Virus record (IMG/VR): IMGVR_UViG_3300037424_001259
Coordinates: 1 to 56,843 of that record
From: a virus
Taxonomy: Duplodnaviria > Caudoviricetes
Reading direction: 5' to 3' (one strand)
DNA: 56,843 bases
Shown piece after piece: positions 3,243-56,180 of this stretch. Each line of letters starts with the position of its first letter. Positions within the stretch are counted from its first letter, which is position 1. Position numbers and translations under genes: made by a program. A model generated the notes under the pieces. That model was not told the DNA's origin. It ran no database searches and saw only the letters and a list, made by a program, of their open reading frames with translations.

Positions 3243-3246
3243 AGGG

Positions 3247-41800: not shown

Positions 41801-44661
41801 TGAGAAAGACCTGGGTGAACTCCGAGATCACAACCCTCGACAATGCCCTGCGCATCTGGCAGGACCGCAACGTCGACATGCTCCGAACGAAGCAGGACAT
41901 CGAGAAGCAAATCGGTGCGCTGAACGACGAGGTGAACTTCCGCCAGAAGGAAACCCTCGCGATCTCCAAGGTTGCGGATCGTCAAGGCGAACTCAAAAAG
42001 CGCTTCGAGAAACCCATTTCAGAATTGATCGCGCTGTACAACGAGACCATCGAGTCGGTCGGCGAATACCTGAGTATGCGCCACGCCGAGGAGTACAACG
42101 ATGTCATCGCCAAGCGCAACCCCGGTTTCGAGGGGCCGGGGTCCGGGATCGAGACTGAGGCCGCCCGGAAATACCTCGAGGGGCTCTCAAAGGAACGCCG
42201 CGAAGGACTCGAGGGAATCGAGGAACTCATCCGGGCTTACAGCGCCACCGTCGAGGACATGATGGTGGAGTACGGGCTTGAAACGCGGGAGACGATCGAC
42301 CTCTGGCGGGAAATGTACCCGCACTACGTTCCGTTCCAGCGCGAAGGGGCGGACGAGGGCGAGGGCATCGGCAACAGGACCGGCAAGGGCATGAACATCC
42401 GCGGCGGAGAGTCGAAGGTCGCGCACGGATCTTCCCTGCCGATCACGAACGTCCTGGCGAACATGTTCGAGAAGGGGCGCCGGACCATCATGCGCGGGGA
42501 GAAGAACCGCGTCGGCAACGCCACCTACGGCGCCGCGGTCAAGTACCAGAACAAGGACTTCTGGAAGGCGGTCAACCCCGAGCGCGTGAGCAAGAGACGG
42601 TTCGCCGCCCTCGAGGCCGAAGCCAAGGCCCTCCAGGAAGAAATCGACATGATCGCGCAGGGGGACTTCCTTGAGGATGAGAACGCCGGGAGGAACGCCG
42701 ACCTCGAGGCCAAATTGAAGAAGGTCGAGAAGGCCATCGACCGCTGGCACGTCGACCGGGCAGAACTCAACAGGGAAATGGCGCGGCTGGGAGTCCCTGC
42801 GGCCGACGTTGAAGCGATCTTCGACGAGCCAAAAGAGCGCTACCTCAACCCCTACACGAAGCAGACCGCGTGGCGCGTGAACTCTGCCGTGCGCGACAAG
42901 CCCTACGTCCTGGCGACTCGGTTCAAGGGGCAGGATCACTTCCTGTTCTTCAACAACCGCAACCCCCGCGCCCTCGAGATGGCGAAGGCGATGAAGAACA
43001 TGGACGTGGAGGATCTCCACTTCATGCTCGCGGCGATGTCGAAGTACACCCGCGTCTTCGCCTCGCTCTCGACGCAGTGGAACGTGTTCTTCGGCCCGGT
43101 CAACGCTGTCCGTGACGTGCAGGAGGCCATGCTGAACCTGACGAACACCCCACTGGCGGGTCGGCAGGACGACGTTGTGAAGATGGTGCCCAAGGCCATC
43201 CTAGGGATCTACAAGGACGTGCGGGGGCGCCGCGCTGGTATGGATCCTGACCTCACGGACCCGGTTGTGCTCGCGGCCAATGAGTACCGTGAGAATGGCG
43301 GGATGACAGGCTTCGTCACCATGCTTGCGGACGCACAGGAACGGGCGGAGTCGATCGAGAAGGAACTCAAGAAGATCACCGAAGGGAAATTCAGGGGCGC
43401 CGGCCGAGCAATCATCGACTGGGTCTCCGACTACAACGAGGCGCTCGAGAACGGGACCCGGCTGGCGGTCTTCATGACGGCTCGCGAGAACGGTCTGAGC
43501 CCCGAGCAGTCGGCCGCCATGGCGAAAGAGATCACGGTCAACTTCAACCGCAAGGGGCAGATCGCTTCTCAGGCCGGAGCGATGTACGCCTTCTTCAACG
43601 CCGCAGTTCAGGGTTCCGCTGTCATGGCGCGGACCTTGGCCGGGCCTGCAGGTAAGAGGATCCTAGCCGGTGGACTGGCCTTTGGGGCCATGCAGGCTCT
43701 CTTCTTGGCCGCCGCGGGCTACAAGGACGACGAGCCGCCGGACTTTGTGAAGCAAAGGAACATCATCATCCCCTGGTTCGACGAGGGCAAGAACTACACG
43801 ATGATCCCGCTGCCTCTTGGCTTCGCTATCCTCCCGAGCCTAGGCCGGATGGCTGCCGAGCAGATCATCGGCGAAGGCAAGCGGCCTGGGAAGCTGGCGA
43901 CGAACCTCCTAGGGCTCGTGGCCGACACCTTCATCCCCACCGGCGGCGGCGGGAACCCCAGTTCCCTATCGAAGTTCGCGGTCAACGCTGTCGCCCCGAC
44001 CGCGGGTCGGCCGATCGCAGCTCTGGCAATCAACGAGGACTACACCGGGCGCCCCGTCTTTCGGGACAACTTCTCCTTCCGCGAGCGCACTCCCGGATTC
44101 ACGCGCACCAAGGACTCAGCCTCCGCTCTCGGAAAGGCTGTCGCGGAGTTTTCCAACTGGGCCTCCGGGGGGACGCAGGACACGCCCGGATCGTTCTCTC
44201 CGACTGCAGACGAATTCGACTTCCTCGTTTCCCAGTACGCGGGAGGTGTTGGCCGGGAAGTAATGAAGACCGCAATAACCGCAAGCGCTGTTGCTCAGGG
44301 AAAAGAGATCCTCCCCTACAAAGTTCCTCTTGTCGGACGCTTCTGGGGGTCTGCTTCTGGATCCTATGCCGTCAAGAATCACTTCTACGAGAACCTCCGG
44401 CTGGCCTATGAGCACAAGAACGAGATCGAGGGCAGGGGAAAGCGCGGTGAAAACATCGAAGATTACATCAAGAAGAACCCGGAGGCTGGCGCGTTTAAGA
44501 TGGCGATGGCGTTCGAGGGGGATCTCGATAAACTCAAGGACGCCAAGACGAAAGCGAACGCACAGGGATTTCATGCTCACAACAGGTATTTCGATCAACA
44601 GGCTATCGGCATGATGGAAGAGTTCAACAAGCAGTTTGACAGGCTGAAGAAAAGGAAGTAG
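38890..44661 (+). CDS. Giant polyvalent ejection protein (HExxH peptidase-like, ParB/Srx-like and C-terminal LPD38-like domains)
   Basis: VFVHEFGH; PPIEV....G.MRVSDGHRRV; EITVNFNRKG, YAFFNAAVQG and IPLPLGF; ATG at 38890 coupled by ATGA. Confidence 0.8.
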   Translation: MSVGCLKKHGLDPGTIAIIEKKALKYIAAKAEIRDAWRQAAQEHLLDLDGQRQRIEALAAPAERKAAAAKEERLPAAMPAPAVPAEKIAAVAPQKSNADLAIVNGNAVAKDEEAQVPLIPEKKARPSILEEAPAPKIGVDTSFDFGANVAPAPAPKPTNPVAAYQAKINEEFPPGDTLVPTERTIHSKGGVIVDRPAKDKHPRGGVVIRFGSGKEKHLTLKEARKWEVFNEQDFRLIEQERSRKEMKGNGEGAFLIGLIKKYGGFDPRMAGLRSDFFQDLKIPPGILKKGAQSVDKLANELGYDDFHDMLADVRSELETGRPSYNGKRDFHENFQPREVPYGPVRRDTGEREAGTPSRPAKETNEPVRSGTGRNVDDATGQPVAGREGSGEGADAGGKGERYGGDLGNARRVQGRGDSHDVARQSDAGGAEVREGVGLREVYAVKRLQESLLENKEISEGFKKRIAGIKPAHLPLSRAAEGELMSALSKFFGVSKKVIIVDANGLFNGVKALDNYIFIDKDATNLLSKVFVHEFGHFKGKERQDLHDVLWQLVDREKFKKWRAAREATQERSGYPFLSEAAAFEEFTNDMMAEVIHNPEFFERLAAEHVGTFRRMIMWIRAKMIAMGINPEGFGYYFSRPGSFPEAVKQIEDFVRNRIESVPGVTKGDLAFFSPANDRQSWDQWSTKEKQARRLAAEAKKAGDVQTENMWTARADELKRKITAASLSANPEDFFGRAMFSPRDDAPPAMSEMLTDSVYRKKVSDNYFKDETLSANSRLVPQVPQGLKLGMWRYDDWGKGVYGHGMSQLRLLDPSTLLLGEDVDQNGRRPDADRYAEWFKEGKAAPPIEVVETDKGLMRVSDGHRRVASAKKNGVPVLAWVSPSMDVLPGKDGKLSRYNGDPKMPVIKTGLTYEAWKDGTGKRTTPLEGGFSDPGLPVPPDFPMFSPRAQKPYTPDWAAIAASQDVAHQVALRKTWVNSEITTLDNALRIWQDRNVDMLRTKQDIEKQIGALNDEVNFRQKETLAISKVADRQGELKKRFEKPISELIALYNETIESVGEYLSMRHAEEYNDVIAKRNPGFEGPGSGIETEAARKYLEGLSKERREGLEGIEELIRAYSATVEDMMVEYGLETRETIDLWREMYPHYVPFQREGADEGEGIGNRTGKGMNIRGGESKVAHGSSLPITNVLANMFEKGRRTIMRGEKNRVGNATYGAAVKYQNKDFWKAVNPERVSKRRFAALEAEAKALQEEIDMIAQGDFLEDENAGRNADLEAKLKKVEKAIDRWHVDRAELNREMARLGVPAADVEAIFDEPKERYLNPYTKQTAWRVNSAVRDKPYVLATRFKGQDHFLFFNNRNPRALEMAKAMKNMDVEDLHFMLAAMSKYTRVFASLSTQWNVFFGPVNAVRDVQEAMLNLTNTPLAGRQDDVVKMVPKAILGIYKDVRGRRAGMDPDLTDPVVLAANEYRENGGMTGFVTMLADAQERAESIEKELKKITEGKFRGAGRAIIDWVSDYNEALENGTRLAVFMTARENGLSPEQSAAMAKEITVNFNRKGQIASQAGAMYAFFNAAVQGSAVMARTLAGPAGKRILAGGLAFGAMQALFLAAAGYKDDEPPDFVKQRNIIIPWFDEGKNYTMIPLPLGFAILPSLGRMAAEQIIGEGKRPGKLATNLLGLVADTFIPTGGGGNPSSLSKFAVNAVAPTAGRPIAALAINEDYTGRPVFRDNFSFRERTPGFTRTKDSASALGKAVAEFSNWASGGTQDTPGSFSPTADEFDFLVSQYAGGVGREVMKTAITASAVAQGKEILPYKVPLVGRFWGSASGSYAVKNHFYENLRLAYEHKNEIEGRGKRGENIEDYIKKNPEAGAFKMAMAFEGDLDKLKDAKTKANAQGFHAHNRYFDQQAIGMMEEFNKQFDRLKKRK
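39911..40294 (+). CDS. Overprinted +1-frame gene nested in the giant protein
   Basis: GGAGG SD 6 nt before ATG 39911 (alternative ATGs at 39881 and 39980); internal repeat LRDNP.P.A...AR.L conserved only in this frame. Confidence 0.6.
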   Translation: MGLCVETLEREKLERHPGQPRKPMSLCVPGPDGMWMMLRDNPSPAAKDLARALMQEGRENAMGGILGTHVVSKDGEIHMTLRDNPTPEALRFARELAYGKSTPSRGYKKVSSKTKKSARASRKESQE

Positions 44662-44711
44662 AAAGGCGGGATCATGAACCGCATCAATCTGGTGGCGAAG
44701 AGGCTTATCCC

Positions 44712-45029
44712 ATGAGCGACTACACCGCGCAGCATCAGTTTTTCTTCGCGCTCTGCCGCTGGGGCCTGGCCGCGGAAGCACGGGGCTACCTCGTCACGGG
44801 CGGCGACTACTATCGCGACCCGCGTGCAACTTTCCCTTACTCGTCACCGCGCTCATACCATGCGCGACGGCTGGCCTTTGACCCGAACCTCTTTCGCGAC
44901 GGTGTTTACCTCACGACTGTCGAGCAGTGGCGGGAAATGGGTGAGCTGTGGGAATCGCTCGGCGGAACGTGGGGCGGGCGGTGGAGCAATGGTGACGCGA
45001 ACCACCTGTCGTGGGGAGAGGGCCGATGA
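44712..45029 (+). CDS. Endolysin, M15-family Zn peptidase
   Basis: SYH..RLAFD and WGGRW...DANH motifs. Confidence 0.85.
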   Translation: MSDYTAQHQFFFALCRWGLAAEARGYLVTGGDYYRDPRATFPYSSPRSYHARRLAFDPNLFRDGVYLTTVEQWREMGELWESLGGTWGGRWSNGDANHLSWGEGR

Positions 45030-45127
45030 GCGGCGGCGAGGTCATCGTCAACGCCCTGGCAGTGGTGGGCGCGATGGTGGTGCTCGCCGGACTTGTGATG
45101 GTGCTCTCGGCGTGGTGGGACAGATGA
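45026..45127 (+). CDS. Small single-TM peptide (33 aa)
   Basis: ATGA-coupled to the endolysin; hydrophobic. Confidence 0.5.
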   Translation: MSGGEVIVNALAVVGAMVVLAGLVMVLSAWWDR

Positions 45128-45247
45128 CCTGCCCCGACTGCGGGTTCGCGCATCCGCACGCCTTCGCCACCTGCCCGGCGTGCGGGTGGTGCCCGACGTG
45201 AAACGATTGACCGTGGCGCCCGGGTGGCGCGGAGGAGGAATGTAACC

Positions 45248-45886
45248 ATGAAAGCCTCGAGAACTGCGGCAATTCTCTTCCTGGCGCTCCTCGTCGCTCC
45301 CGGCTGCGCCGCCTGGTGCAACAAGCCGGATCCCGGGTACCTCAAACTGATCGCCTGCAGCGCGGTCATGCCGACGCCCCAGCCGCCGGCCGAGCCCGGG
45401 ACAGTCATCACCCCCGGCGTACAGGAGTGCGTCACGTCGAGCGTCCCGGCGTACCTTCAGCTCGAGATCCGCGGAAAGCAGCCGGGCAATGCCGAACGCG
45501 AAGAAGTGACGATGTGGGCCTTCGCCGAGGGCGGCGACTGGCGAGGGGGAAATCCTCTGCCGCCGACATTCGGGGTCCGCTGCAACGACTCCCGGCCGGA
45601 CTGGGCCAAACTCAAGGTCTACCGCGACGGCCACACCGGGGCAGCCGAGAAGGAGCAGCCGCTCGCCATGGCCTGGAATCCCGCCGAGACGTACCGCTTG
45701 AGGCTCGACGTTGCCCCAGGACTGGTCACCTGGACGGCGGGGAGGCTGAGCGACGGGGTGACGGTCAAGGCCCGGCAGGAGGCCGCTACGCCGAGCAGGG
45801 TCACGATCTGCTGGGGGGACCCGGGGACTCGCAAGGCGGCTATCGGGGCGACCGTGTGGAGGGTTGAGCGGGGGGTGACGCCGTGA
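45248..45886 (+). CDS. Secreted protein or lipoprotein in the lysis module
   Basis: GGAGGAGG SD; signal MKASRTAAILFLALLVAPGC. Confidence 0.6.
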   Translation: MKASRTAAILFLALLVAPGCAAWCNKPDPGYLKLIACSAVMPTPQPPAEPGTVITPGVQECVTSSVPAYLQLEIRGKQPGNAEREEVTMWAFAEGGDWRGGNPLPPTFGVRCNDSRPDWAKLKVYRDGHTGAAEKEQPLAMAWNPAETYRLRLDVAPGLVTWTAGRLSDGVTVKARQEAATPSRVTICWGDPGTRKAAIGATVWRVERGVTP

Positions 45887-46110
45887 CCCTCAACCGCCGC
45901 TACACCGCGCTTTGGATTCTTTGGCTCCTCGCGTTCGCCGTGCTGGAGGGGGCTGCCCTGCTCGACCCGGGAGCCGGGGACACGTTGACGGAGACTGTCA
46001 GGAAGTGGCTCGCCCTGTCGAGCCGAGAGCAGTGGGTGGGCCGGACTGCGCTGGCAATAGGGCTGGCCTGGTTGACACACCATTTCATGAAGCCAAAAAA
46101 GGAGAGGTGA
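45883..46110 (+). CDS. Two-TM membrane protein (holin candidate)
   Basis: Two hydrophobic helices; GDTLTE..RKW motif. Confidence 0.6.
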   Translation: MTLNRRYTALWILWLLAFAVLEGAALLDPGAGDTLTETVRKWLALSSREQWVGRTALAIGLAWLTHHFMKPKKER

Positions 46111-46114
46111 CACC

Positions 46115-46447
46115 ATGTCCGCAATTATCCTCGCACTCGTCAAGCAGCTCGCGCCCGTCGTGATCGGCCCGATGGTGACCAGCGCCGTGAAGTGGCTGAT
46201 GGCTCGGTTCGGCACGAAGCTCCCGGCGCTTGCAAAGGTCGCGGTGAGCGCAGCCGCCGGAGCCGTGACCGCCGCCACCACCGGCAACGTGACCGACCTG
46301 GCAGCAGCTACGGCCACGATGGTCGGGGGTGGCATTGCCGGAGCGGCTGGTAGCAAGGCCCGGGACGTGATCGTCGGCAAGCCGGAAGCGTGCGCCCCCG
46401 GCGAGTTCGTGCCGCCCTGGACGGACAAGAGCAACGGCGAGGGGTAA
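46115..46447 (+). CDS. Membrane protein (holin candidate)
   Basis: Hydrophobic Ala/Gly helices; last gene of the late operon. Confidence 0.55.
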   Translation: MSAIILALVKQLAPVVIGPMVTSAVKWLMARFGTKLPALAKVAVSAAAGAVTAATTGNVTDLAAATATMVGGGIAGAAGSKARDVIVGKPEACAPGEFVPPWTDKSNGEG

Positions 46448-46519
46448 CCCCTACCCGTCACCCCCCTGCGGCCTCCGGCACCCGGATCCTCCCCGGGATA
46501 ATCCTCATGGCGCTGGGGA

Positions 46520-46996
46520 TCACGGGGAATCCTCCCCAGGCCGCGCTGCGCCCTGAGAAGCATGAAACCTTACGTGGCAGCGGACACAAAGCCAGCGCAC
46601 GACGAGGGGCGCAGAATAATCGTCATGGTGCGCGTGAAGTCTGGATTTAATTTCTCCGCACTCCGAACACAACGAGGGCTTTTGTATTGATCCAGATCTC
46701 TTCCCGCGCCCTATTGCAACGTGCGCCTTTCGTTCTTTCGGATGCGATATCCTCCAGGTTCTTGTGCGTTGCTTCTTTGCCGCCTTCCTTGCGTCAGAAT
46801 AAAGAGAATATTTATCAGACGAAGGGTATTTGTGCCTCGACTCTTTTTGGCAATCTCGGCATTCGTACTGAAATCCTCGGGCATTAGCGGTGTGCCTTTT
46901 GTACTCTGATGCGGCCTTTATTGTTTTACAAGAACTACACCGAAGAAGCTGAGCTTCGGCCCTTGGCTCTTCTGGTAATGTTTCGTTCTCCTTCAT
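46520..46996 (-). CDS. HNH endonuclease with N-terminal zinc finger
   Basis: CSSC...CRDC, then CSECG...LHAHHDDYSAPLVVRWLCVRCH. Confidence 0.85.
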   Translation of the reverse strand: MKENETLPEEPRAEAQLLRCSSCKTIKAASEYKRHTANARGFQYECRDCQKESRHKYPSSDKYSLYSDARKAAKKQRTRTWRISHPKERKAHVAIGRGKRSGSIQKPSLCSECGEIKSRLHAHHDDYSAPLVVRWLCVRCHVRFHASQGAARPGEDSP

Positions 46997-47091
46997 CCCT
47001 CCTCCTTCCCCATCGCGGGGGTGATAAACCGCAGCGGCTTTGCACGTTCGGGACCGTACCGTGCTCAACGCGCAAAGCCGTTACCACCTAA

Positions 47092-47445
47092 TCACTCGGG
47101 AAAAAAGGTTAAAATAGCACGAGCCAGCGACCTTAGTTCTTCTGGCGTTGCGTCGTTTTTCATTGTGTTTGCTTTTCTGGAAATTACCCATACGTTGCCG
47201 GGGATATATCCGATTGAATTTACTTTTCGGTCAAGTGACGGGGAGTTGTCGTTCTTAGATGTTGAACCACGATAAAGTTTGATACCGAGAAGTGGGCATG
47301 TTTCTGGAACGATTATGTCATCCACCGTAATAGAAAACGGTATTGAGTCGCGCTTGCTTCTGTACTTTGCTACAGCAAGCATGTGCTCTTTGAGGTGAGC
47401 CAGGAAATAACGCTTTCGTGTCTCTGGCTTGCTTTTCCCGCTCAT
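47092..47445 (-). CDS. HNH-like endonuclease
   Basis: CPLLG...SPSLDR.....GY..GNV.VIS.KAN.MK.DAT.EEL. Confidence 0.85.
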   Translation of the reverse strand: MSGKSKPETRKRYFLAHLKEHMLAVAKYRSKRDSIPFSITVDDIIVPETCPLLGIKLYRGSTSKNDNSPSLDRKVNSIGYIPGNVWVISRKANTMKNDATPEELRSLARAILTFFPE

Positions 47446-47832
47446 TTAGACACCTCCCGGAATATACTCTTGGTTAGGCTGCAAAACTGCATCAGGAGTG
47501 TCGCGCTTCCGAGGGTACTTGTTTCGGCACTCCTCTGCCGAGGTTACACCAAGCGCCTTCCCGCACTCTGCAATCAACGAATGGTAAGAGATTGGCTTGT
47601 CTCTGAATTCCATCGCGTCCATGTACCAACGCGAAAGCAACCACTCAAGAAGACATATCCTATTTTGCCCCGACATCACATTTATCCGCGAAGCGTCCAA
47701 AGCACGTTCAAGGTTTTCTATCTTTGTGGCGGCTTCGCCCATCTGCTTATTGCATGTCTCGCGCTCAAACCGCTCCCCGTGAACTGCGTCCATGTTCACC
47801 GATGCGCGGAGCCTCCTTGCAATGTCGCTCAT
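47446..47832 (-). CDS. Cassette 1 hypothetical protein (3' end runs past the array boundary)
   Basis: ORF coupled to 47829-48107. Confidence 0.65.
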   Translation of the reverse strand: MSDIARRLRASVNMDAVHGERFERETCNKQMGEAATKIENLERALDASRINVMSGQNRICLLEWLLSRWYMDAMEFRDKPISYHSLIAECGKALGVTSAEECRNKYPRKRDTPDAVLQPNQEYIPGGV

Positions 47833-48107
47833 CCCGCAAGCCCTTTTTGTCTTCCGCAGACGCGAGAGATGGTTTCTCCAAATGCCACGAATTGCTCAAC
47901 CGTCCTCCGTGCCGCTGCCAACTCCTGTTCCTGTTTTGCGACGAGCGATTGCAGGTGTGAAGCGAAAACAGAAACTTTCGTTTGCTGCTCGCTGGCTGGG
48001 AGTTCTTCGATCATCACGCAGAGTTTGTGCATCCGTCCTGCGAGGTACGGAACGGTATTCTCGCCAAGAACCTCATCCACCAGCCTGTCGATATTCGCCA
48101 TCTCCAT
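47829..48107 (-). CDS. Cassette 1 hypothetical protein
   Basis: ORF with SD starting just inside attC1. Confidence 0.65.
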   Translation of the reverse strand: MEMANIDRLVDEVLGENTVPYLAGRMHKLCVMIEELPASEQQTKVSVFASHLQSLVAKQEQELAAARRTVEQFVAFGETISRVCGRQKGLAG

Positions 48108-48131
48108 TCCCTTTCTGCCGGATCAGGAGGA

Positions 48132-48190
48132 GCCTAACCCACGCATGGAGGAGACGCGGAAACCGCGCTCCTCATAACTTCATGTTAGGT
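48132..48190 (+). repeat. attC site 1 (59 bp)
   Basis: GCCTAAC CCACG CATgGAGG AGaC GCGG AAA CCGC GCT CCTCATA ACTTCAT GTTAGGT (lower case = unpaired bases). Confidence 0.9.
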
Positions 48191-48480
48191 GGTAAAAAGA
48201 TATCAATTTTGTCTCGCATGTCCCCGAGAGCCGCGTGGCCGTAGTTTTCAGACCAATCGTCGAAGAGTTGGCGGGACTCCCGGAGTAATTCAACCAATTT
48301 TGAAATTCGTTGTTCGGCTGAGAGGCATTCCTTGCCGCGCTTTGACCCTTTACCCTCCTCCCACCCTGGACCCTGCATCGAACATTCGATCCCCTCTTGA
48401 CAGAAAAATTCTTCGGGACACTGGCAGGGCTCGCAGAACTCGTCACCGGCATCAATCTCCATGGCTATCAGTCGTTTCAT
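48172..48480 (-). CDS. Cassette 2 Cys-rich hypothetical protein
   Basis: AGGAGG SD; stop lies inside attC1. Confidence 0.7.
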   Translation of the reverse strand: MKRLIAMEIDAGDEFCEPCQCPEEFFCQEGIECSMQGPGWEEGKGSKRGKECLSAEQRISKLVELLRESRQLFDDWSENYGHAALGDMRDKIDIFLPPNMKL

Positions 48481-48505
48481 AACATCCCTCCTGGTTATGA
48501 AGACC

Positions 48506-48563
48506 ACCTAACCAAGTGCTGTAGTTGACCGCGAGGCGCGGCAACTAAGCACCCATGTTAGAT
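48506..48563 (+). repeat. attC site 2 (58 bp)
   Basis: ACCTAAC CAAGT GCTgTAGT TGaC CGCG AGG CGCG GCA ACTAAGC ACCCAT GTTAGAT. Confidence 0.9.
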
Positions 48564-49000
48564 GCGGAACCGAAACACCGATGCCACATCACCAGCGACC
48601 CGGCCACCGCAACATTGTAGCTCTCCGTCCGCACGCTCTCCAGGCTCACGACGTGCTGACACTTCGCGAGGATCTCCTTCGGTAATCCATGGTCTTCTGC
48701 CCCGAGCAAATACACGGCCCGTTCCGGGTGCTTGAATTGCGCCAGCGGCGTTCCTCCCATTTCGACCGCTACTAATGGCGCATCATAGGGCCGGGACAAG
48801 AGGAACAGATCCCATGTCGCGTGCTCACGGAGCGGTACGTGCCGCCACGTTTTCAGCGTGTCGCTCGCCTGTTTCGGATAACGAGAACCAATTGTGAAAA
48901 TCCCCGTCGCCCCGAGTTGCGAAGCAGAGCGCCAGAGCGTGCCGAGGTTCATTGGCGTCTTGTGATGGTAAATCCCGATCTCGAAATACCCGCGCATCAC
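48545..49000 (-). CDS. Cassette 3: SpoU/TrmH-family (SPOUT) RNA 2'-O-methyltransferase
   Basis: NLGTLWRSA..LG (motif 1), LLGAEDHGL (motif 2) and ESYNVAVAG (motif 3). Confidence 0.9.
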   Translation of the reverse strand: MMRGYFEIGIYHHKTPMNLGTLWRSASQLGATGIFTIGSRYPKQASDTLKTWRHVPLREHATWDLFLLSRPYDAPLVAVEMGGTPLAQFKHPERAVYLLGAEDHGLPKEILAKCQHVVSLESVRTESYNVAVAGSLVMWHRCFGSASNMGA

Positions 49001-49018
49001 AACTCCTTTCGGAAGAGC

Positions 49019-49071
49019 ATCTAACCCAGCAGTGAACCGGACGCTACGCGCCGGTTACCGCACTGTTAGAC
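49019..49071 (+). repeat. attC site 3 (53 bp)
   Basis: ATCTAAC CCAGC AGTgAACC GGaC GC TAC GC GCC GGTTACC GCACT GTTAGAC. Confidence 0.9.
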
Positions 49072-49319
49072 CGCAAGAACTGCATACCAGCCTCGGTGAT
49101 CTCCCAACGCAACCACGGATAGCCCTCGGCTTTTGGCACGATGAATTTTCGCGTTTCGAGTTCAAGAACCAAAGAGCGCAGCCACTGCTTGTCCATGTCC
49201 CATATGCTGACTCGCGGAGAATTAGAAAGCACCGCGAGCGCATTTGCCGTGGTCCGCATCTTCGGCTTCAAGTCTGCGAGGTCTCCAGAAAAACTATCAA
49301 GAAAAATAACTCCCGGCAT
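49044..49319 (-). CDS. Cassette 4 small winged-helix-like protein
   Basis: AAGGAG SD; C-terminal WEITEAGMQFL wing motif; stop lies inside attC3. Confidence 0.7.
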   Translation of the reverse strand: MPGVIFLDSFSGDLADLKPKMRTTANALAVLSNSPRVSIWDMDKQWLRSLVLELETRKFIVPKAEGYPWLRWEITEAGMQFLRSNSAVTGA

Positions 49320-49345
49320 TTGTTCCAGTTCTCCTTTCCCGTGGG

Positions 49346-49404
49346 GTCTAACCCACGCATGGACCTGACCGCGAGACGCGGCAGGTCATGACTTCATGTT
49401 AGGT
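49346..49404 (+). repeat. attC site 4 (59 bp)
   Basis: GTCTAAC CCACG CATgGACC TGaC CGCG AGA CGCG GCA GGTCATG ACTTCAT GTTAGGT. Confidence 0.9.
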
Positions 49405-49656
49405 GGATAAACAGCCACGGGCCAAACTCGCAAGACAATTACATTCGGGAACCTCGCTATACTTTCTCGCTGGTGCTAAGTTCTCCGCGTCTATGCACGC
49501 CTGCAACCGCTGCGGATCTTCACCCTTGCCGAGCGACACGTTAAGCAGGATGCAATGCTTTCTTCCTCTTGCCGCCCGCTTCACGTATTGGCAAGACCCG
49601 CAAATGTGAACAGAGGGGCTACTGTCGATCTTGATTCGCAGGTATCGCGTTGCCAT
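49399..49656 (-). CDS. Cassette 5 gene 4, Cys-rich
   Basis: TAATG coupling; stop TAA lies in the attC4 core. Confidence 0.6.
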   Translation of the reverse strand: MATRYLRIKIDSSPSVHICGSCQYVKRAARGRKHCILLNVSLGKGEDPQRLQACIDAENLAPARKYSEVPECNCLASLARGCLST

Positions 49657-49838
49657 TACATAAACCCGCACTTTCTCATCATCGCCATCATGTCCTTGAA
49701 CCCGACAACAATCCATTCCTTCTTCTTGAGCGGAAGCGAAAAATGGAACTCCCCGGCGTTGGGGTTTAAAACATCGCCATCACGAAAGTATCGAATCAGG
49801 TTGTCATTCTCTTTGCAGGTGTACTTTACGGTCTTCAT
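49656..49838 (-). CDS. Cassette 5 gene 3
   Basis: GGAGG SD; coupled. Confidence 0.6.
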   Translation of the reverse strand: MKTVKYTCKENDNLIRYFRDGDVLNPNAGEFHFSLPLKKKEWIVVGFKDMMAMMRKCGFM

Positions 49839-49994
49839 TTATTCACCCTCCGTCAAACAACCTTCCGGCATCTCGTTTTCATACACGAGCTTGTGTTGCT
49901 CGTCCCGGCCTACTCCCCGCCCGCAGATCGGGCAAAAAAACACAATCCCCCGCTTCCCGTATGGCCGTATTTCGCATTCTGTTTTGCCGCCCAT
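49839..49994 (-). CDS. Cassette 5 gene 2 (51 aa, FCPICG)
   Basis: Read manually: MGGKTECEIRPYGKRGIVFFCPICG... Confidence 0.45.
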   Translation of the reverse strand: MGGKTECEIRPYGKRGIVFFCPICGRGVGRDEQHKLVYENEMPEGCLTEGE

Positions 49995-50011
49995 GTTCTC
50001 GTGGTAGAGGC

Positions 50012-50209
50012 TCACTTTCCATTTTCTCCTTTCATGTATTCCCTTATCCCATCACACATCAATTGCAACTTTCTGACGTATTCCCGAGCGGGGTGCGTAT
50101 TGCCGTGCCCGTCAAGCCAAACAACATCTTCCCACATCGTTACTCTATCGCACCGATCAAGAAGGAGAAGGAGAACCTTCTTGTAACCCTTATTACCTAG
50201 GCCACTCAT
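50012..50209 (-). CDS. Cassette 5 gene 1
   Basis: GGAGG SD before ATG 50209. Confidence 0.6.
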   Translation of the reverse strand: MSGLGNKGYKKVLLLLLDRCDRVTMWEDVVWLDGHGNTHPAREYVRKLQLMCDGIREYMKGENGK

Positions 50210-50236
50210 CACCCCTCCAATCAAAGCAAAATCACT

Positions 50237-50293
50237 TCCTAACCCGAGCATGAAGCTGACCGCTAGGAGCGGCAGCTTATGCTTTTGTTAGAT
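50237..50293 (+). repeat. attC site 5 (57 bp)
   Basis: TCCTAAC CCGAG CATgAAGC TGaC CGCT AGG AGCG GCA GCTTATG CTTTT GTTAGAT. Confidence 0.9.
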
Positions 50294-50878
50294 GGATAAC
50301 CGCAACTGACGCACCCACTCCGAACGCCCCGTTGCACGCTCGATCTCCTTGGCGTTCTCCTCCGCGTGATAGTTAATCCCGTGCTGTGCCTCAGACACCG
50401 CAGCAACGTAGTAGGCCAGTGCCGGTTTCGCGTTGGCAGACTTCAAGGACTCGCAGATGTAATCAATTCCGTTGCCACTGATCCCGATTTGCTGAAGCAT
50501 GAAATCTTTCAGCCCCTTGTGCTCTGGTGTCGGCGGTCGCCACGCCTTGACCTGCTCGGCCATCGCGGTCAGGCGTTCGTTCGCGGCTTGGTCCTTTGCC
50601 AGCCACTGTTCGGTGCGGGAAACATCAGCGGCCTTCTCGGACTGCCCAAACGCAAGGCGCTCATCGGTGGTCATGGCCTTCAGTCGCGCCAATTTCTCAC
50701 GGGACTCGACCAAACGCTTCGCGTGATAGTCCGAAGGCTCGAACTTGTCCGGAACGGGCGCGTCATTTGGATCGTCACGCATTTCGATCAACGCCCCGAA
50801 AGCGCGGGCGCATCCCATAATGAACTCCTGAAACGTCTGCCCATTGTCCATCAGCTTCGCGGTGTACCCTGTTGGCAT
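50288..50878 (-). CDS. Cassette 6 conserved phage hypothetical protein (MPTGYTA family)
   Basis: MPTGYTA...F..F...CARAFGA...MRD and W.PPT.EH..LK.FM.QQI motifs. Confidence 0.8.
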   Translation of the reverse strand: MPTGYTAKLMDNGQTFQEFIMGCARAFGALIEMRDDPNDAPVPDKFEPSDYHAKRLVESREKLARLKAMTTDERLAFGQSEKAADVSRTEQWLAKDQAANERLTAMAEQVKAWRPPTPEHKGLKDFMLQQIGISGNGIDYICESLKSANAKPALAYYVAAVSEAQHGINYHAEENAKEIERATGRSEWVRQLRLSI

Positions 50879-50911
50879 TTCGATCTCCTTTCAAGATTAA
50901 CTACAAAAACC

Positions 50912-50968
50912 ATCTAACCCAGCCGTTGTAGCCGACGCCTACGGCGCGGCTAAACGCTACTGTTAGAT
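50912..50968 (+). repeat. attC site 6 (57 bp)
   Basis: ATCTAAC CCAGCC GTTgTAGC CGaC GCC TAC GGC GCG GCTAAAC GCTACT GTTAGAT. Confidence 0.9.
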
Positions 50969-51237
50969 GGAAACTGAAAACCACAATACAGATTGTCTTC
51001 GGCAATCCGCTTGATACTCGCCAGCAGCCCGAGAAGCAAATCGTTCTGCGCTCCCGGAAGCGTCCCGGTGTGAGCGATGATCCTCCGCAGCGTGTCCTTG
51101 AACCGCTCCGACTCGTCGTCGTTGAGGCAGTCCCGGAACTCAACAGAAACGATTCTTCCGCCCTTCCATCCGTCGCCAGCGGTCACTCCGGGTTCGGTCC
51201 CGTCCGCAAACTCGAATACTGCCGTATACCGTTTCAT
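50950..51237 (-). CDS. Cassette 7 hypothetical protein
   Basis: GGAGGAG SD; stop lies inside attC6. Confidence 0.7.
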   Translation of the reverse strand: MKRYTAVFEFADGTEPGVTAGDGWKGGRIVSVEFRDCLNDDESERFKDTLRRIIAHTGTLPGAQNDLLLGLLASIKRIAEDNLYCGFQFPSNSSV

Positions 51238-51257
51238 GCTACTCCTCCGGTTGTGCC

Positions 51258-51313
51258 ATCTAACCCACGGTTGTAGCCGACGCCTACGGCGCGGCTAAAC
51301 GCTACTGTTAAAA
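51258..51313 (+). repeat. attC site 7 (56 bp)
   Basis: ATCTAAC CCACG GTTgTAGC CGaC GCC TAC GGC GCG GCTAAAC GCTACT GTTAAAA. Confidence 0.9.
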
Positions 51314-51769
51314 TCGCTCCTCGACCCAAACCCCGCCCTTGCGCTGGATCGCCACGAAGTTAAATTCTGGAAACAGGTCAGCAGCGACCTTGATGCGCAC
51401 CCGGGCGGCCTCTCTCCAGAAGCCCTTGACTTCGTGGAACTGGAACACGTCGCAGTCTTTGTCCTCGTTCCTTGCGACGACAAGGAAGTCTGGTTTGAAC
51501 CATGCTCTGTTGGCAAGCCGCAGGCGGATAGCCTCGAATTTCCACGACACAATCACTCTGGCATGGCGCAGGATCTCAAGGTGGTCGGCATACTTTGCTT
51601 CCGTTGGGTTCATTCCGCGAGGCGTAGGCTTGCTCTTGGCAACCGTCTCCTTTGCCACGATCGGTTGCTTCTGGCACACAACTTTATGTTGAGGGTTGAT
51701 CTGTAATAGCGCTTGCTCTCTGTGCGCGGGAGAGAGCATCGCGAGGTCGTCTTCGATTGTTCTAGCCAT
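51308..51769 (-). CDS. DUF1064-like PD-(D/E)XK endonuclease
   Basis: MNPTEAKYA..L, W.FEAI.LRLA....KPDF, HEVKGFW and RIKVAA motifs. Confidence 0.8.
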   Translation of the reverse strand: MARTIEDDLAMLSPAHREQALLQINPQHKVVCQKQPIVAKETVAKSKPTPRGMNPTEAKYADHLEILRHARVIVSWKFEAIRLRLANRAWFKPDFLVVARNEDKDCDVFQFHEVKGFWREAARVRIKVAADLFPEFNFVAIQRKGGVWVEERF

Positions 51770-51899
51770 GCTTGTTACTCATCACCACGTCGGGTCATCT
51801 TTAGGTTGTCTTTTCGGATTCGGATCATCTCTTTCGTCGCGGTACTCGGGCGACTCTCGGTACTCAGCGGCGATCTCGTCTTCGTATGAAACTGACATT

Positions 51900-52238
51900 T
51901 CAGTTCGCCCCTCCCGGGACGATAATCAGGGGTTTCGACGCGGCCACCCGCTTGCTCATGATGCCTGAGACTGCAGTGATGCCCCGCAGAACGAGTTGCG
52001 GATCGTGCCCGAGAAGGGCGACGAAAGAACTCGATGCAATGGCGACCGCCGGGTCTTGAGCAAGGCGGCCTCCTATAAAAAACACCGGCTTGCCGTCTCT
52101 GATCGCAGCGACGTAAAGGAATGTTGTGGCGGGGTCGCTGGCGAGGGCCGCAATGTCTTCTCGGCGGCCTGCAGGGATGCCGTTCTCTTCCGTCGTCGGT
52201 GAATCAGGCTGCGCATCCTTGACTTCCTCGTCGCTCAT
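51900..52238 (-). CDS. Hypothetical protein
   Basis: SD and ATGA coupling; IIVP C-terminus. Confidence 0.6.
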   Translation of the reverse strand: MSDEEVKDAQPDSPTTEENGIPAGRREDIAALASDPATTFLYVAAIRDGKPVFFIGGRLAQDPAVAIASSSFVALLGHDPQLVLRGITAVSGIMSKRVAASKPLIIVPGGAN

Positions 52239-52417
52239 TTCTCGATCCTCCTAACCGCTCCGTGCTCGTCGTACTGGTAGAGCTGCCCGTCCTGCGTCTT
52301 GATCGTGACGCCGGCTTTCATGCGAGAAGGGAGAAGCCCGCGGTGCTCGCTCTTTGCATGTTGTGCGGCCTTGTAGTCGTCGCCTTTGCTGCGGCCCGGG
52401 TGCTTGTGGTCGCTCAT
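52235..52417 (-). CDS. Hypothetical protein
   Basis: Strong GGAGGAGG SD. Confidence 0.6.
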   Translation of the reverse strand: MSDHKHPGRSKGDDYKAAQHAKSEHRGLLPSRMKAGVTIKTQDGQLYQYDEHGAVRRIEK

Positions 52418-52526
52418 CTAGCCCTCCTCCTCGCCCCTTACTCCGAAACCACGATGGCTGTCCACAACACGGTAGAGCGTGCTGAACCATCGGCCATTTC
52501 AGGGGCGCCTCCCGTTTTTTGTTGGA

Positions 52527-53666
52527 CTACTTCTTGGCGGTTGCTTTGTTCAATTCATTCCAGCTTGCCAAGAGAGACTTCAGCGCCGGCAGCCCCTTCG
52601 CCTGCGCTGTGTCGATCTTGGCGTCCATGGCGGCGGCTTGGTATCCGAGTTCGGCGCCGACGTTGTAGAGGGCGTCGATGATGGCTTGCTCTTCGTCGGT
52701 AACGGTGGTGGCGGCAGAAGCCTCGGAAGGGGCCTCAGCGGTCTTCTCGGCGGGGGCGGACTTGCCCTTGATCTTGTCGCTTATCCTTTTGCCCTGGTCC
52801 TTGCCGACATCAGACCCGTCTCCCTCGGCCTCCTTGCCCTTGATCTCGTCCATGATCGCTTTCCAGGTGGTCTCACCGTCGGCGATGGCGCGGTGCAGGG
52901 CTCGGAGCGTGTCGAGTTCGGCTGGCACGAGCTGGGCGACCGGATGCCCAAGGTAGGCCGCGAGGTCGACCGACCGCACTCCGATCGCCGCGAAGGCGTC
53001 GATGACACGCTTGCGGGCAGCCTGGGGATCCTCGGCGTCCTTCTTCGCCAGGGTCTCGCGGGCAACCTCGAGCGCCTCGTCGGTGATGTCGGCGGGGATC
53101 AGGCGCAGTCCCTCGTTGCGGACGACCTTGGAGACGGCCTTCGATTCCTCGTTCTGCATCTCGTCGTCGGTGGCGCGGACGATGTAGACCGTCTCGTTGT
53201 AGGAGTTCTGCCTCGAGGAGATCACGTCGCGGTCCTTGGCGTTCTTGCGTTCGACGGTCTTCTTGACCTGGATGTCGCGGCTGAATGTGGAGTTCGTCTG
53301 CAGGTCGATGCACCGGACGTTCACCCGGCGGATGTCCCTGTCCTCGTAGACCACGGAGGTCTCAACCATCAGATTCCCCCACTCCCGGACTGCCAGTTCG
53401 GCGAACCGGATGGACGGACCCTTGATGGCCTTGCCGCCAGTGGGCTTGGCGTACTCCACCCGGGCAGCGAACATCGGGCGCCGGCACGCCTCGAGGATGC
53501 GCAACCGGGCCTCGTCGATGTCCCGGGGCTTTCGCAGGGCAACGGAGTAGGCCGACTCGATGCGGGCGCGGGATGCTTCCGCCGCGGCGATCGCGGATGG
53601 GTCGGAGATAGCGAGCGCGGTTCCGGGGTTCTGCTGGACTTTGGCCACTGCGGTGTTCTCTGCCAT
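52527..53666 (-). CDS. Putative ssDNA-annealing recombinase (partner of YqaJ)
   Basis: A...PRD...A, Y.KP.GG..I.GPSIRFAE...R.WGN and DLQTN motifs; adjacent to the exonuclease. Confidence 0.65.
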   Translation of the reverse strand: MAENTAVAKVQQNPGTALAISDPSAIAAAEASRARIESAYSVALRKPRDIDEARLRILEACRRPMFAARVEYAKPTGGKAIKGPSIRFAELAVREWGNLMVETSVVYEDRDIRRVNVRCIDLQTNSTFSRDIQVKKTVERKNAKDRDVISSRQNSYNETVYIVRATDDEMQNEESKAVSKVVRNEGLRLIPADITDEALEVARETLAKKDAEDPQAARKRVIDAFAAIGVRSVDLAAYLGHPVAQLVPAELDTLRALHRAIADGETTWKAIMDEIKGKEAEGDGSDVGKDQGKRISDKIKGKSAPAEKTAEAPSEASAATTVTDEEQAIIDALYNVGAELGYQAAAMDAKIDTAQAKGLPALKSLLASWNELNKATAKK

Positions 53667-53667
53667 G

Positions 53668-54654
53668 TTATTTCTCCTTGGGTTTGTAGAATTTGCGAAT
53701 CCCGTCGACCTTCTTCGTGTGCTTGGCAACGATCGCTTCGTAGTCAACCTTGGAAATCATGCCAGAGATGTGCTTGGCGATCGCCTCGTAGTCAACCTTT
53801 TCCCCGTCCTTGGTGCGCGACCATTTCGCCCTCGAGCCGTCCCCGAACACGATCCCTTCGTCGCCGGCGATGATCTCCTCCAGTTGGTTGATCGCAAGGT
53901 TTTGCTGGACCTTTGCGACATCCAGCATCTCGCCGGCCCGGAGGAGTTCCTGTTTGATCTGCTCGGCCTCGTCTGTCGCCGGCAGGAGCTGCTTCGTATT
54001 CCTGGGGAACTGGCGGGCCAGCCACGCTGCGGCTTCTTCGCTGGCGTCCACCGGCGGCGCCTTGTCGGTCATGACGTAGTCCATCCAGAAGCGCTCTGCC
54101 TCTTCGCGGAGTTGCGCCTCGAGGTCCAGGTTGCGGCCGCGGACGATGGGATAGACGCGGAAGTTCGGGCCAGGGAGAAGCACGGCGATGTCGGCAACGT
54201 CCTGCTGAAGTACCATGCCCTGCCAGATGACTTGAATGAAGTACATATCGGGCACGGCATTCTCCGTTCCGATCTCGCCCCACTTCAGCGACGACGAACG
54301 GCCAAGGATCGCCTTCGCTTCGACCACCCTCTTGTCCTCTTTTCCGACGCCGTCCGGAGTCGCCGCGGCCAAGCGGAATTCAGGACTGATGATGATCTCG
54401 GTATCCCCGCAGTGCCGGACCGGGACATTCTCCTCGATCTCGTACCGGTTAAGAACGGTCGACTGCAGGTTCCGGCCAAGCCACATGGCGAGATTGTCCT
54501 CGAGCGGCTCGGCTCTCCCGGTCTTCTCGAGCCACACCCCGAGCTTCGACTTCCACGGGTTCATGCCGACGATCGCGCCGATGTCGGTCGCGGTGACGTG
54601 CGACTGCCTCAATTTTAGCCATTTTTCTCGAGATAACACCTCGACTTCACTCAT
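53668..54654 (-). CDS. YqaJ-like viral recombinase exonuclease
   Basis: WLKLR...TATD...I.G.NPW.S, ATPDG, VEAK and VPDMY.IQV motifs. Confidence 0.9.
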   Translation of the reverse strand: MSEVEVLSREKWLKLRQSHVTATDIGAIVGMNPWKSKLGVWLEKTGRAEPLEDNLAMWLGRNLQSTVLNRYEIEENVPVRHCGDTEIIISPEFRLAAATPDGVGKEDKRVVEAKAILGRSSSLKWGEIGTENAVPDMYFIQVIWQGMVLQQDVADIAVLLPGPNFRVYPIVRGRNLDLEAQLREEAERFWMDYVMTDKAPPVDASEEAAAWLARQFPRNTKQLLPATDEAEQIKQELLRAGEMLDVAKVQQNLAINQLEEIIAGDEGIVFGDGSRAKWSRTKDGEKVDYEAIAKHISGMISKVDYEAIVAKHTKKVDGIRKFYKPKEK

Positions 54655-54863
54655 CTCTGCGCCCTCCGCACCACAACAAGCGCCGCCGCCAAATCCAACG
54701 ACGCCCTCTTCACGGCGCCCATCTCACGGGTTTTGTAGAACGCCCCGATGGTTTGCTTCCCGTCCCGCGCAAGAGCCCTGTCTGCGGCCAGCATGAACCG
54801 CGCACACTCAACCGTTGCGTTATGGACGGCCTCGCGTTGGGCGGCGGACATGATTCCTTTCAC
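54651..54863 (-). CDS. Hypothetical protein
   Basis: GAVKRASLDL motif; coupled. Confidence 0.6.
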   Translation of the reverse strand: MKGIMSAAQREAVHNATVECARFMLAADRALARDGKQTIGAFYKTREMGAVKRASLDLAAALVVVRRAQR

Positions 54864-55132
54864 GCCCCCTCCTCCTCCGCCGCCGCGCCCTCACCAAACA
54901 GCGCCGGCTGCGCCGTGTTCACGTCGACATCCCCATCGCCGTCCACTGGAGACACCCGCTGGCTGACGAGCAAAGACGCCTTGAACCCGAGTTCGCAGGC
55001 GGCAAGGCACAGCCGGTGCGCGTCACGAATACTCGCCGCGGGCTTCGCGATCTCTTCCTCTTGTCCTTCCGGAACGTAGGTCACAAAGTAGCTTCTCTCC
55101 CCGTTTTTCCACGCTTGCCGCTTCCCCTTCAT
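54860..55132 (-). CDS. Hypothetical protein
   Basis: GGAGG SD before ATG 55132. Confidence 0.55.
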   Translation of the reverse strand: MKGKRQAWKNGERSYFVTYVPEGQEEEIAKPAASIRDAHRLCLAACELGFKASLLVSQRVSPVDGDGDVDVNTAQPALFGEGAAAEEEGA

Positions 55133-55314
55133 TTCGCTTCCCTCCCTGTGAGTTTCTTGAAATCCCAGTTCATCCCGGTCCCATCGCACATATTGAAGTG
55201 CCCGTTTGTCGCCCCTGTCGTCAGGTCCATCGGTTTGGCGTCCATCGCCCGCTCCCGCCGCGCCCACCAGAGCAGCAGCGCGACGATTCCTAGGGCGGCG
55301 AGGGCGGCGATCAT
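55129..55314 (-). CDS. Small membrane protein
   Basis: MIAALAALGIVALLLWW N-terminal TM helix. Confidence 0.5.
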   Translation of the reverse strand: MIAALAALGIVALLLWWARRERAMDAKPMDLTTGATNGHFNMCDGTGMNWDFKKLTGREAK

Positions 55315-55487
55315 GGGCGGGACTCCTCGTCGCGGATCAGCGCATCGATTTCCGCGATAACTTCTTTGCGCCACAGCAGGCCCGCTCCGGGGTCAAACAC
55401 TCCCACCATCTCCCGCGTGCGGCTGCGAAGCCAGAGACTCGACGGTGTGCGCTGACTTGTGATGGACCCAGATTTCATTCGGCGCGG

Positions 55488-56180
55488 TCACGACTTGCCT
55501 TCCTCCAGCGCAGCGTCTACGGCGGCGAGGACTTCTCTGGCGTACTTGACGCACGCCTCCGTGTTAGGCCACGACTCCCCGGCGGGGAGGTTAATCAGCG
55601 CCGCCGTCATCTCCAGCAACTCCCGCCGCCGCTCGGCTCGGGTGGGGACGGCGCACTTGGTGTTCTCGGCGCGGAGAGCATCGTTCTCCTGCTTGTACTC
55701 ATTCATGGCGTTGTAGCGCGACACTATTTCTGCGTTCAGCCGCTCGATCTCCTCGCCACGTCGATCAAACTCGGCGCACGCGCACGGTCCCGAAGTCAGC
55801 GGCAACTCGGGGGCGACCGGGTCGGGAGGGATGCCGGCGATGATGTCACGAACGGCAGATCGCAACTCTGCCTCGTCCCACTTGGCCCTTTCGCTGTCGA
55901 ACCATTTCGTCCATGCCTTTGCCAACTCGCGGCACCGGCAAGCGGGCGCGACGGGGGGCTGCTTGACGGGCTTGACGATGTCGAGCGCCTTCTTCGCACT
56001 GAGCACGTTGCTCATGGTGACGCCGAAGTGCAACTCCTCCGCCGCCTTGACCGCGATTCTCTGCGCGGTGGTTACGGAAGCCCACGCGCGGGACTCGTCG
56101 ATCCAGGCGTACAGGCGTGTAATCTGCGTTGCCGTGAGGTTGTTCGACTGCCGGGAGCCTTCGCCCTTCTTGTGGCTCAT
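55488..56180 (-). CDS. Hypothetical protein
   Basis: ATG 56180 coupled to the upstream stop. Confidence 0.6.
   Translation of the reverse strand: MSHKKGEGSRQSNNLTATQITRLYAWIDESRAWASVTTAQRIAVKAAEELHFGVTMSNVLSAKKALDIVKPVKQPPVAPACRCRELAKAWTKWFDSERAKWDEAELRSAVRDIIAGIPPDPVAPELPLTSGPCACAEFDRRGEEIERLNAEIVSRYNAMNEYKQENDALRAENTKCAVPTRAERRRELLEMTAALINLPAGESWPNTEACVKYAREVLAAVDAALEEGKS

Follow-up and report, generated by a model that had tools for sequence, protein, structure and literature searches.

Reversed integron cassettes without an integrase in the early operon of a phage

Integrons count as devices of bacteria, with cassettes that are read from the promoter of their platform. Here we describe an array of seven integron cassettes in an uncultured sediment phage, on IMG/VR record IMGVR_UViG_3300037424_001259, the whole of which was analysed (56,843 bases, linear; CheckV completeness 84%) and is called the window below. 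Structural genes occupy the plus strand up to ~45 kb, and an early operon, which includes a YqaJ-type exonuclease (PF09588), takes up the minus strand between position 46,520 and the right end; the array lies within this operon.

Under the definition given for IntegronFinder, an attC site cluster without an integron-integrase (CALIN) consists of at least two attC sites that share one strand, are spaced by less than 4 kb and have no integron integrase in their vicinity. Phage CALINs have already been described, and in the passages that deal with them their boundaries are put down to off-target or illegitimate recombination, with no insertion site reconstructed (Qi 2023, PMC9892861). The Tetrasphaera phage TJE1, as presented in PMC9892861, likewise carries an integrase-less run of attC cassettes with GTTRRRY at its boundaries; methyltransferase-type cargo is reported in the same account, as in the window, and the seven sites of the window stand well above the two-site minimum used there. 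The match of TJE1 to our attC model (1012-1079, plus strand, at the end of orf2; model described below) lies on the strand of the annotated gene, i.e., the classical layout, whereas the genes of the window all lie opposite.

Insertion of cassettes at genomic GWT sites (attG) has been shown experimentally and, in the parts of that work concerned with it, is proposed as the origin of single attC sites lacking integron-integrases (SALINs) and of small CALINs (Loot et al., bioRxiv 10.1101/2022.09.11.507474). As portrayed there, attG insertion likewise takes place outside attI and attC at 5'-GWT-3', and the cassettes can be expressed from a neighbouring promoter; however, those experiments used E. 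coli with IntI1, IntI2 and IntI3, whereas the window offers a phage operon, a stop-codon target, seven cassettes and no CRGM motif. The attC of aadA1 (In2, plasmid R100, NC_002134) agrees with the sites of the window in its end boxes, its length, its short loop and its pair of unpaired bases 6 nt apart, and its central stem is partly identical in sequence. In R100 the gene is on the top strand with the attC behind it, the top strand reading attI...G|TT, gene, attC, whereas in the window the gene is on the bottom strand with the attC in front, and no intI, attI or Pc is apparent. As its second unpaired base, the bottom strand has C in the window and G in aadA1; this C was tried as a mark of reversed cassettes and rejected, as the classical-looking arrays of the same family in contigs L147 and L132 share it.

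The locus may be read as a phage CALIN formed by attG-type insertion, a reading which is partly supported by the evidence below; phage CALINs and attG insertions were both already known. Systematic cargo reversal and stop codons as docking sites are not described in the literature consulted; for reversal, the supplementary tables of Qi 2023 may be relevant. New here are the polarity rule, i.e., the strand of the AAC triplet, and a SpoU cassette common to two unrelated phage contexts.

The attC sites and the polarity of their cargo

An attC site is recognised by inverted boxes, RYYYAAC and GTTRRRY, which end an imperfect palindrome of ~55-140 nt. The window holds seven repeats of 53-59 nt on the plus strand which start with ..CTAAC and end with GTTAG.., and in all seven the RYYYAAC/GTTRRRY ends enclose a hairpin of 55-61 nt, the last box of the seventh site (attC7) being a hybrid. 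A regular expression run over all 56,843 bases placed attC-like sites only at 48134-51311, a degenerate attC pattern gave five matches against 0.00 expected from 100 shuffles, and the covariance model, with filters off, found no eighth site in 44000-56843. The predicted folds of the single-stranded DNA leave two bases unpaired on the 5' arm of the plus strand in 7/7 sites; on the minus strand of every site an extrahelical T and C, 6 nt apart, stand on the 3' arm opposite the 5' AAC. Extrahelical bases opposite the AAC are the geometry of the recombinogenic bottom strand, as set out in the relevant part of Nivina 2016. Compensatory double changes occur at 8 of the 16 consensus pairs among the seven sites.

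The covariance model was built from the seven attC sites of the window alone and run against 1.25 Mb of sequence, namely the window together with 83 viral loci and 50 kb from plasmid R100. It scored its own sites at 49.6-76.2 bits on the plus strand, against 14.9 bits or less on the minus strand, and its sole match outside the window was the aadA1 attC of R100 (32 bits, E 4e-4), on the strand where aadA1 is read. Because a model of these seven sequences finds the aadA1 attC, we take the sites, on the strength of sequence and predicted fold, to be integron-type attC sites, and recombination by an integrase is predicted for them; because the match falls on the aadA1 sense strand, the plus strand of the window corresponds to the classical top strand.

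Neither TIGR02249, the IntI profile, nor PF00589, the general tyrosine-recombinase profile, has a match anywhere in the 56.8-kb, 84%-complete record; both gave matches in control genomes. There being no intI match in the record, the locus does not qualify as a complete integron. With seven sites on one strand, start-to-start distances of 327-891 nt and no match to either profile, the array is an integrase-less integron cassette array, i.e., a CALIN, in a phage early operon. From right to left it consists of the following sites and cassettes, with open reading frames abbreviated as ORFs.

51258-51313, plus strand: attC7, complete, at the right array end, with the hybrid R' box GTTAAAA (51307-51313); 68.7 bits
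50963-51307, minus strand: cassette 7, i.e., an ORF (50950-51237, 95 aa; phrog_3876, E 5e-6; Shine-Dalgarno GGAGGAG) and attC7
50912-50968, plus strand: attC6; 74.7 bits; 98.4% identity over 63 nt to contig L141 (3516-3578)
50288-50962, minus strand: cassette 6, with an ORF (50288-50878, 196 aa; phrog_8905, E 3.8e-27)
50237-50293, plus strand: attC5; 68.2 bits; 96% identity over 79 nt to contig L134
49399-50287, minus strand: cassette 5, with ORFs 50012-50251, 49839-50015, 49656-49838 and 49399-49716, without a family match
49346-49404, plus strand: attC4; 76.2 bits
49066-49398, minus strand: cassette 4, with an ORF (49044-49319, 91 aa, from the ORF listing) extending 7 codons into attC3
49019-49071, plus strand: attC3; 49.6 bits
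48558-49065, minus strand: cassette 3, with a SpoU-family RNA 2'-O-methyltransferase gene (48545-49000, 151 aa; PF00588, E 4.2e-21)
48506-48563, plus strand: attC2; 71.6 bits
48185-48557, minus strand: cassette 2, with an ORF (48172-48507, from the ORF listing) whose likely start, judged by its Shine-Dalgarno sequence, gives ~102 aa
48132-48190, plus strand: attC1; 74.1 bits
47474-48184, minus strand: cassette 1, with ORFs 47829-48107 (92 aa) and 47446-47832 (128 aa), without a family match

Every cargo gene thus sits on the minus strand, i.e., on the attC bottom strand, and is preceded by its attC. This orientation is backed by the matches to PF00588, phrog_8905 and phrog_3876, and each of the remaining cassette ORFs follows a strong Shine-Dalgarno sequence and has its start at a distance of 9-30 nt from an attC. 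Classical polarity would place the gene on the top strand with the attC downstream, whereas every homology-backed gene here is opposite to the model strand. Since the genes of TJE1 and R100 lie on the model strand and those of the window opposite, the cassettes are reversed with respect to the classical kind. No other feature of the locus is as unusual.

The cut geometry offers a reason for this polarity. In the mechanism outlined in Nivina 2016, the partner strand that is cut carries 5'-AAC-3' and becomes continuous with the attC bottom strand, and the minus strand of the window at attC7 reads as this geometry predicts. Polarity would be dictated by the target, because the only AAC in the stop codon and spacer at the insertion site (see below) is TAA+C, on the sense strand.

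Outside the window, reversal was scored by a heuristic which calls for an ORF of at least 50 aa opposite to the model strand, with a Shine-Dalgarno-like motif and a start within 70 nt of R''. This heuristic is crude, and high-scoring sites are by construction those most like the window. At 46 bits or more, 16 of 21 non-window sites were reversed; among the other five, one at a contig end was not judgeable, one had an ORF of 39 aa only and three had no such ORF. Below 46 bits the count was 3/29. Homology-backed reversed cargo comprises a C5 DNA methylase and a ribbon-helix-helix protein (contig L151), an RNA-ligase-like domain (the complete phage G001) and SpoU (contig L180), and homology-backed classical cargo comprises PIN-type genes in L132 and L147.

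Two cassette genes terminate exactly at the crossover TTA, namely 50288-50878 (at the R' box of attC5) and the last ORF of cassette 5. The four small co-oriented ORFs of cassette 5 (79, 58, 60 and up to 105 aa) make it unusually gene-rich for one cassette. The ~20 nt just inside the crossover are alike in unrelated cassettes (GTTAGGC/GAC, then ..GCAA.AACTGCAT), at 47474-47493 and 49066-49085 of the window, 1161-1180 of L180 and 953-975 of L151. Different proteins consequently end in ...AVLQPN, ...FLRSN or ...VLKSN; it is the DNA that is conserved here, and pairing with the other attC end does not account for it.

The insertion site

The array is bordered by genes of the same minus-strand operon:

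51308-51769, minus strand: DUF1064-like nuclease or Holliday-junction-resolvase-like gene (153 aa; phrog_190, E 1.4e-10; homologs carry PF06356)
47473-47479, plus strand: lone R' box GTTAGGC at the left array end, crossover G47473|T47474, with no attC further left
47092-47445, minus strand: HNH-like endonuclease gene (117 aa; phrog_3322 'endonuclease', E 3.3e-30; phrog_3118 'HNH endonuclease', E 3.4e-7)
46520-47068, minus strand: second endonuclease gene, last of the operon (182 aa; phrog_2340, E 7.7e-25)

The names DUF1064 nuclease and HNH come from an initial annotation made from the sequence alone. The second rests on phrog_3322 and phrog_3118, and the first on phrog_190 and the PF06356 of homologs, the protein itself having no direct match in Pfam. 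Its two closest homologs (82% and 67% identity) match most of its length and differ in the last ~25 residues; its C-terminus (window 51308-51400) resembles the tail of a 46%-identical homolog, P0005, so that the gene is a mosaic beside the array.

The TAA stop of the DUF1064-like gene (51308-51310) is the TTA in the hybrid R' box of attC7 (G51307|TTA). On the other side, the HNH-like gene starts on the minus strand at 47445, with the Shine-Dalgarno sequence GGGAGG (complement of 47453-47458) 7 nt upstream of its ATG, and 28 nt (47446-47473) separate this start from the crossover. Removing 47474-51307 (3,834 nt) in silico leaves the stop, the 28-nt spacer with its GGGAGG and the HNH-like start in succession. 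The initial annotation had claimed just this for the joining of G47473 to TT51308, and each element is indeed read in the sequence; the ancestral DUF1064-HNH junction that it implies is a reconstruction. At the crossover this junction has GTT, which fits the 5'-GWT-3' consensus of attG. Even with filters off and E up to 10, the covariance model found no attC-like remnant left of 47473 or between the start of the DUF1064-like gene and the next gene. The spacer contains no other AAC or GTT.

No gene is interrupted by the array. Its last ORF (47446-47832, minus strand) extends 9 codons past the left junction, and its TAA touches the ATG of the HNH-like gene. The left end of the array is a lone R' box, and at the right end stands a complete attC whose R' box is a hybrid. 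This is exactly the shape expected if an IntI-type crossover joined a circle, through its attC, to a non-att GTT. That the right-hand box is a hybrid follows from metagenome contig L151: 51260-51310 (51 nt) of the window are 100% identical to L151 906-956, after which L151 goes on as GTTAGGC and the window into the DUF1064-like gene. A G|TTA that forms the TAA stop of the upstream gene at the end of a complete attC is also found in G001 and in contig L129; in L151 the corresponding box is read through as Ser-Asn.

A promoter and terminator scan of 45500-56843 gave counts no higher than in shuffled sequence (terminator-like sites, 16 vs 13.1 +/- 4.2). Given this and the co-orientation of the genes, the array would be transcribed from the promoter of the operon.

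L151 also bears on the number of insertion events. Its attC, identical to the core of attC7, is followed by a cassette start homologous to that of cassette 1, an adjacency which a single multi-cassette circle would have had; this is a hint only, as both modules are common. The claim that the array grew through attC recombination is one of two readings, the single insertion of a multi-cassette circle fitting equally well as stepwise growth.

Sharing of cassettes and a candidate integrase

The attC family was found well beyond the window. Viral contigs gave 16 pattern matches, two with convincing model matches; metagenome contigs from JGI and ENA gave 25 matches, with 44 model matches at E <=0.1; and in species-representative genomes the strict pattern gave none, a looser pattern six loci and the model 14 matches. 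Several of these outside sites are 93-100% identical to sites of the window yet flank other genes. In a second sediment metagenome (run X2, from another study), a 975-nt contig otherwise unlike the window has an attC5-like stretch (window 50228-50295, one difference in 68) in its middle, and a deeper X2 contig stops within an attC6-like site.

As judged by alignment, natural breakpoints fall at the R' box in three comparisons. In the first, the SpoU cassette is common to the window and L180, a 37.7-kb contig from a metagenome-assembled genome (MAG) labelled Anaeromyxobacter, which has four attC sites and all genes on the opposite strand. The two copies share 97.3% of amino acids over 148 aa and 86.4% of nucleotides over 531 nt (L180 649-1176), and the blastn match starts one base before the GTTAGAT box. 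The cassette is terminal in L180; to the left of the box the window has attC2, whereas L180 has unrelated, non-attC sequence beside a convergent plus-strand module. The protein accordingly ends in ...SASNMGA in the window vs ...SASNN in L180. In the second comparison, L141 and L151 are identical from the GTTAGAT box on, with an attC before the box in L151 vs an unrelated flank in L141, and the third is the match of attC7 to L151 given above. By these alignments, we consider the cassettes to be mobile units common to other phage-like contigs, with phage-type cargo such as the RNA methyltransferase.

A few further observations concern these contigs. Positions 1-5692 of L180 form a second reversed four-attC array, with two methyltransferase-like genes and the shared SpoU cassette, downstream of N6/N4-type DNA methylase-like and SNF2-like helicase genes (named from reading their translations only). 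One ORF upstream of the array, both L180 and L141 have a membrane-protein gene starting MTQSRRH. A SpoU relative (70% identity) lies at 3001-3417 of viral contig L194 with no adjoining attC, so this cargo also exists as an ordinary phage gene. Intergenic motifs occur near lone R' boxes, GCGAGCGGGTGAGTT in L141 (2497-2511 and 2848-2862) and AGCGGGTGAGCT in G001 (L127 3458-3470); the motif AGCGGGTGAG, near boxes in L141 and G001, was rejected since it is not enriched in the window.

Regarding the enzyme, the complete phage G001, which carries one cassette of the attC family, has no TIGR02249 match (PF00589 was not run on G001). A true IntI is encoded in the proteobacterial soil MAG G004, with 501.6 bits against a cut-off of 265 (G004:C4:1242595-1244516, locus L186; also L181). 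Sites of the same broad attC family lie beside it on the opposite strand, i.e., the usual integron layout, so enzymes for this site family exist in soil bacteria, and the G004 integrase is a candidate enzyme type for the phage sites.

How the array may have arisen and what it means

We hold it probable, with some reservation, that the array is a phage CALIN which came into the early operon through insertion at a stop-codon AAC by an integrase acting in trans. An integron integrase, most likely supplied by the host, would act on an attC whose bottom strand is folded and recombine that strand with a secondary, double-stranded phage site, this site being the AAC formed by the TAA stop of the DUF1064-like gene and the next C. 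A cut at AA|C would keep both the stop codon and the downstream Shine-Dalgarno sequence, and since both survive, no gene would be harmed. Because the AAC stands on the sense strand of the operon, the attC bottom strand would become the sense strand; only cassettes with genes on the bottom strand could then be read from the phage transcript, and all seven are of this kind. We infer both the acting enzyme and the number of insertion events.

Several results weigh against this account. The right-hand CRGM motif is not matched, positions 6-9 reading ATCG, although that motif has been defined for IntI1 hotspots only. The GTTAGGC at the left end is weak evidence as a lone box, given that a GTTRRRY heptamer should turn up roughly once in every kb of either strand. 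We found no relative with an unoccupied junction, and no close phage relative was present. An exact 16-mer of the empty site had 20 matches in viral contigs, but none of the 20 was similar to the flanks of the window by blastn or tblastx and all are put down to chance; the search for related phages with the contiguous empty sequence, which the initial annotation had proposed, hence gave none. A DUF1064 profile search (28 proteins) was followed up at the best 80 of 578 relatives, taken as loci, and none of the 80 had an attC of the family, an HNH relative or another early gene of the window; likewise, none of the 26 loci of HNH relatives had an attC or any other window protein, including a DUF1064 relative. 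The nearest DUF1064 relatives (82% and 67%) have a different C-terminus, and the contigs that encode them are 594 and 1148 nt long. The lysis module of the window recurs in L141 (75.8% nucleotide identity over 538 nt), which has another left flank beside its cassette and no HNH genes. The record is 84% complete only, so that its missing part may encode a recombinase.

Other searches were of little help. No close relative emerged via the DUF1064-like protein or via blastn of the phage collection, and the YqaJ exonuclease led to three distant loci only. In two public runs holding the stretch or part of it, the contigs show no joint that skips the array or a cassette, but contigs drop rare variants and are uninformative on absence. 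On the question of whether the first cassette entered a secondary GTT site, as initially annotated, topology, the GWT fit and the absence of a damaged gene speak for the claim, and the missing empty relative and the neighbour loci (0/80 and 0/26) speak against it. The present left neighbour of the array may be secondary, and the HNH genes may have come later.

This last point leads to what we regard as the strongest rival, unlikely as it is: an integron integrase did make the junctions, though not in the present arrangement; either the array (or just its left end) came by inheritance or was shifted by mosaic recombination of phages, or both endonuclease genes arrived beside it later by homing, in which case the reconstructed DUF1064-HNH junction never existed. 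The lysis module of L141 with its different flank and lack of HNH genes would fit such a history, as would the mosaic C-terminus of the DUF1064-like gene, the occurrence of HNH relatives in many unrelated phages and the location of the array, which in the window as in L141 and L180 is the distal end of a minus-strand operon. However, both junctions are clean, with a hybrid R' box on the DUF1064 stop at the right and an R' box 28 nt from the HNH start at the left, and later homing would need to have landed exactly at the box.

A recombinase of the phage itself, other than IntI and encoded in the missing ~16% of the genome, could in principle build and shuffle the array. We consider this improbable: the record being 84% complete leaves room for such a gene, but there is no PF00589 match in 56.8 kb, the complete phage G001 carries a same-family cassette without a TIGR02249 match, the sites are close enough to the aadA1 attC for a seven-sequence model to find it, and the same site family stands beside a true IntI in G004. 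It is very hard to credit that nothing was inserted and that the hairpins are fixed intergenic elements (terminators, RNA stabilisers or repetitive extragenic palindromic (REP)-like repeats) with ordinary phage genes between them, an idea helped by the suggestion, in the relevant passage of Qi 2023, that attC sites act as weak terminators, by the matches of some cargo to phage families and by the 70% SpoU relative in another phage without attC, but opposed by one cassette in two unrelated contexts with similarity from the R' box, near-identical hairpins flanking unrelated genes in other contigs, unpaired bases and AAC/GTT ends with the asymmetry of attC, and terminator-like sites at shuffle level.

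Returning to insertion at the stop codon, a wider and doubtful extension is that TAA+C stops serve as natural scarless docking triplets for integron integrases in packed phage operons. As such docking puts the attC bottom strand on the sense strand, phages might maintain a pool of mirror-image cassettes, each headed by its attC. New members of this pool might be minted from ordinary phage genes, with an attC upstream and the AAC of the gene's own stop as the two points of excision. If minting of this kind were true, several cassette genes would end exactly at the crossover because excision uses the AAC at their own stop.

What the locus offers is a phage that uses integron recombination sites without a platform of its own. 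Insertion exactly behind a stop codon would come at no cost, and with the cargo on the other strand the operon is predicted to read it. The presence of the same cassette in an unrelated phage context means that these units do move, and a simple rule, namely that the strand of the AAC triplet predicts cargo orientation, can be applied to them. Together this provides a testable route by which phages may gain or swap accessory genes, e.g., an RNA methyltransferase here, and a DNA methylase and an RNA-ligase-like gene in related arrays.

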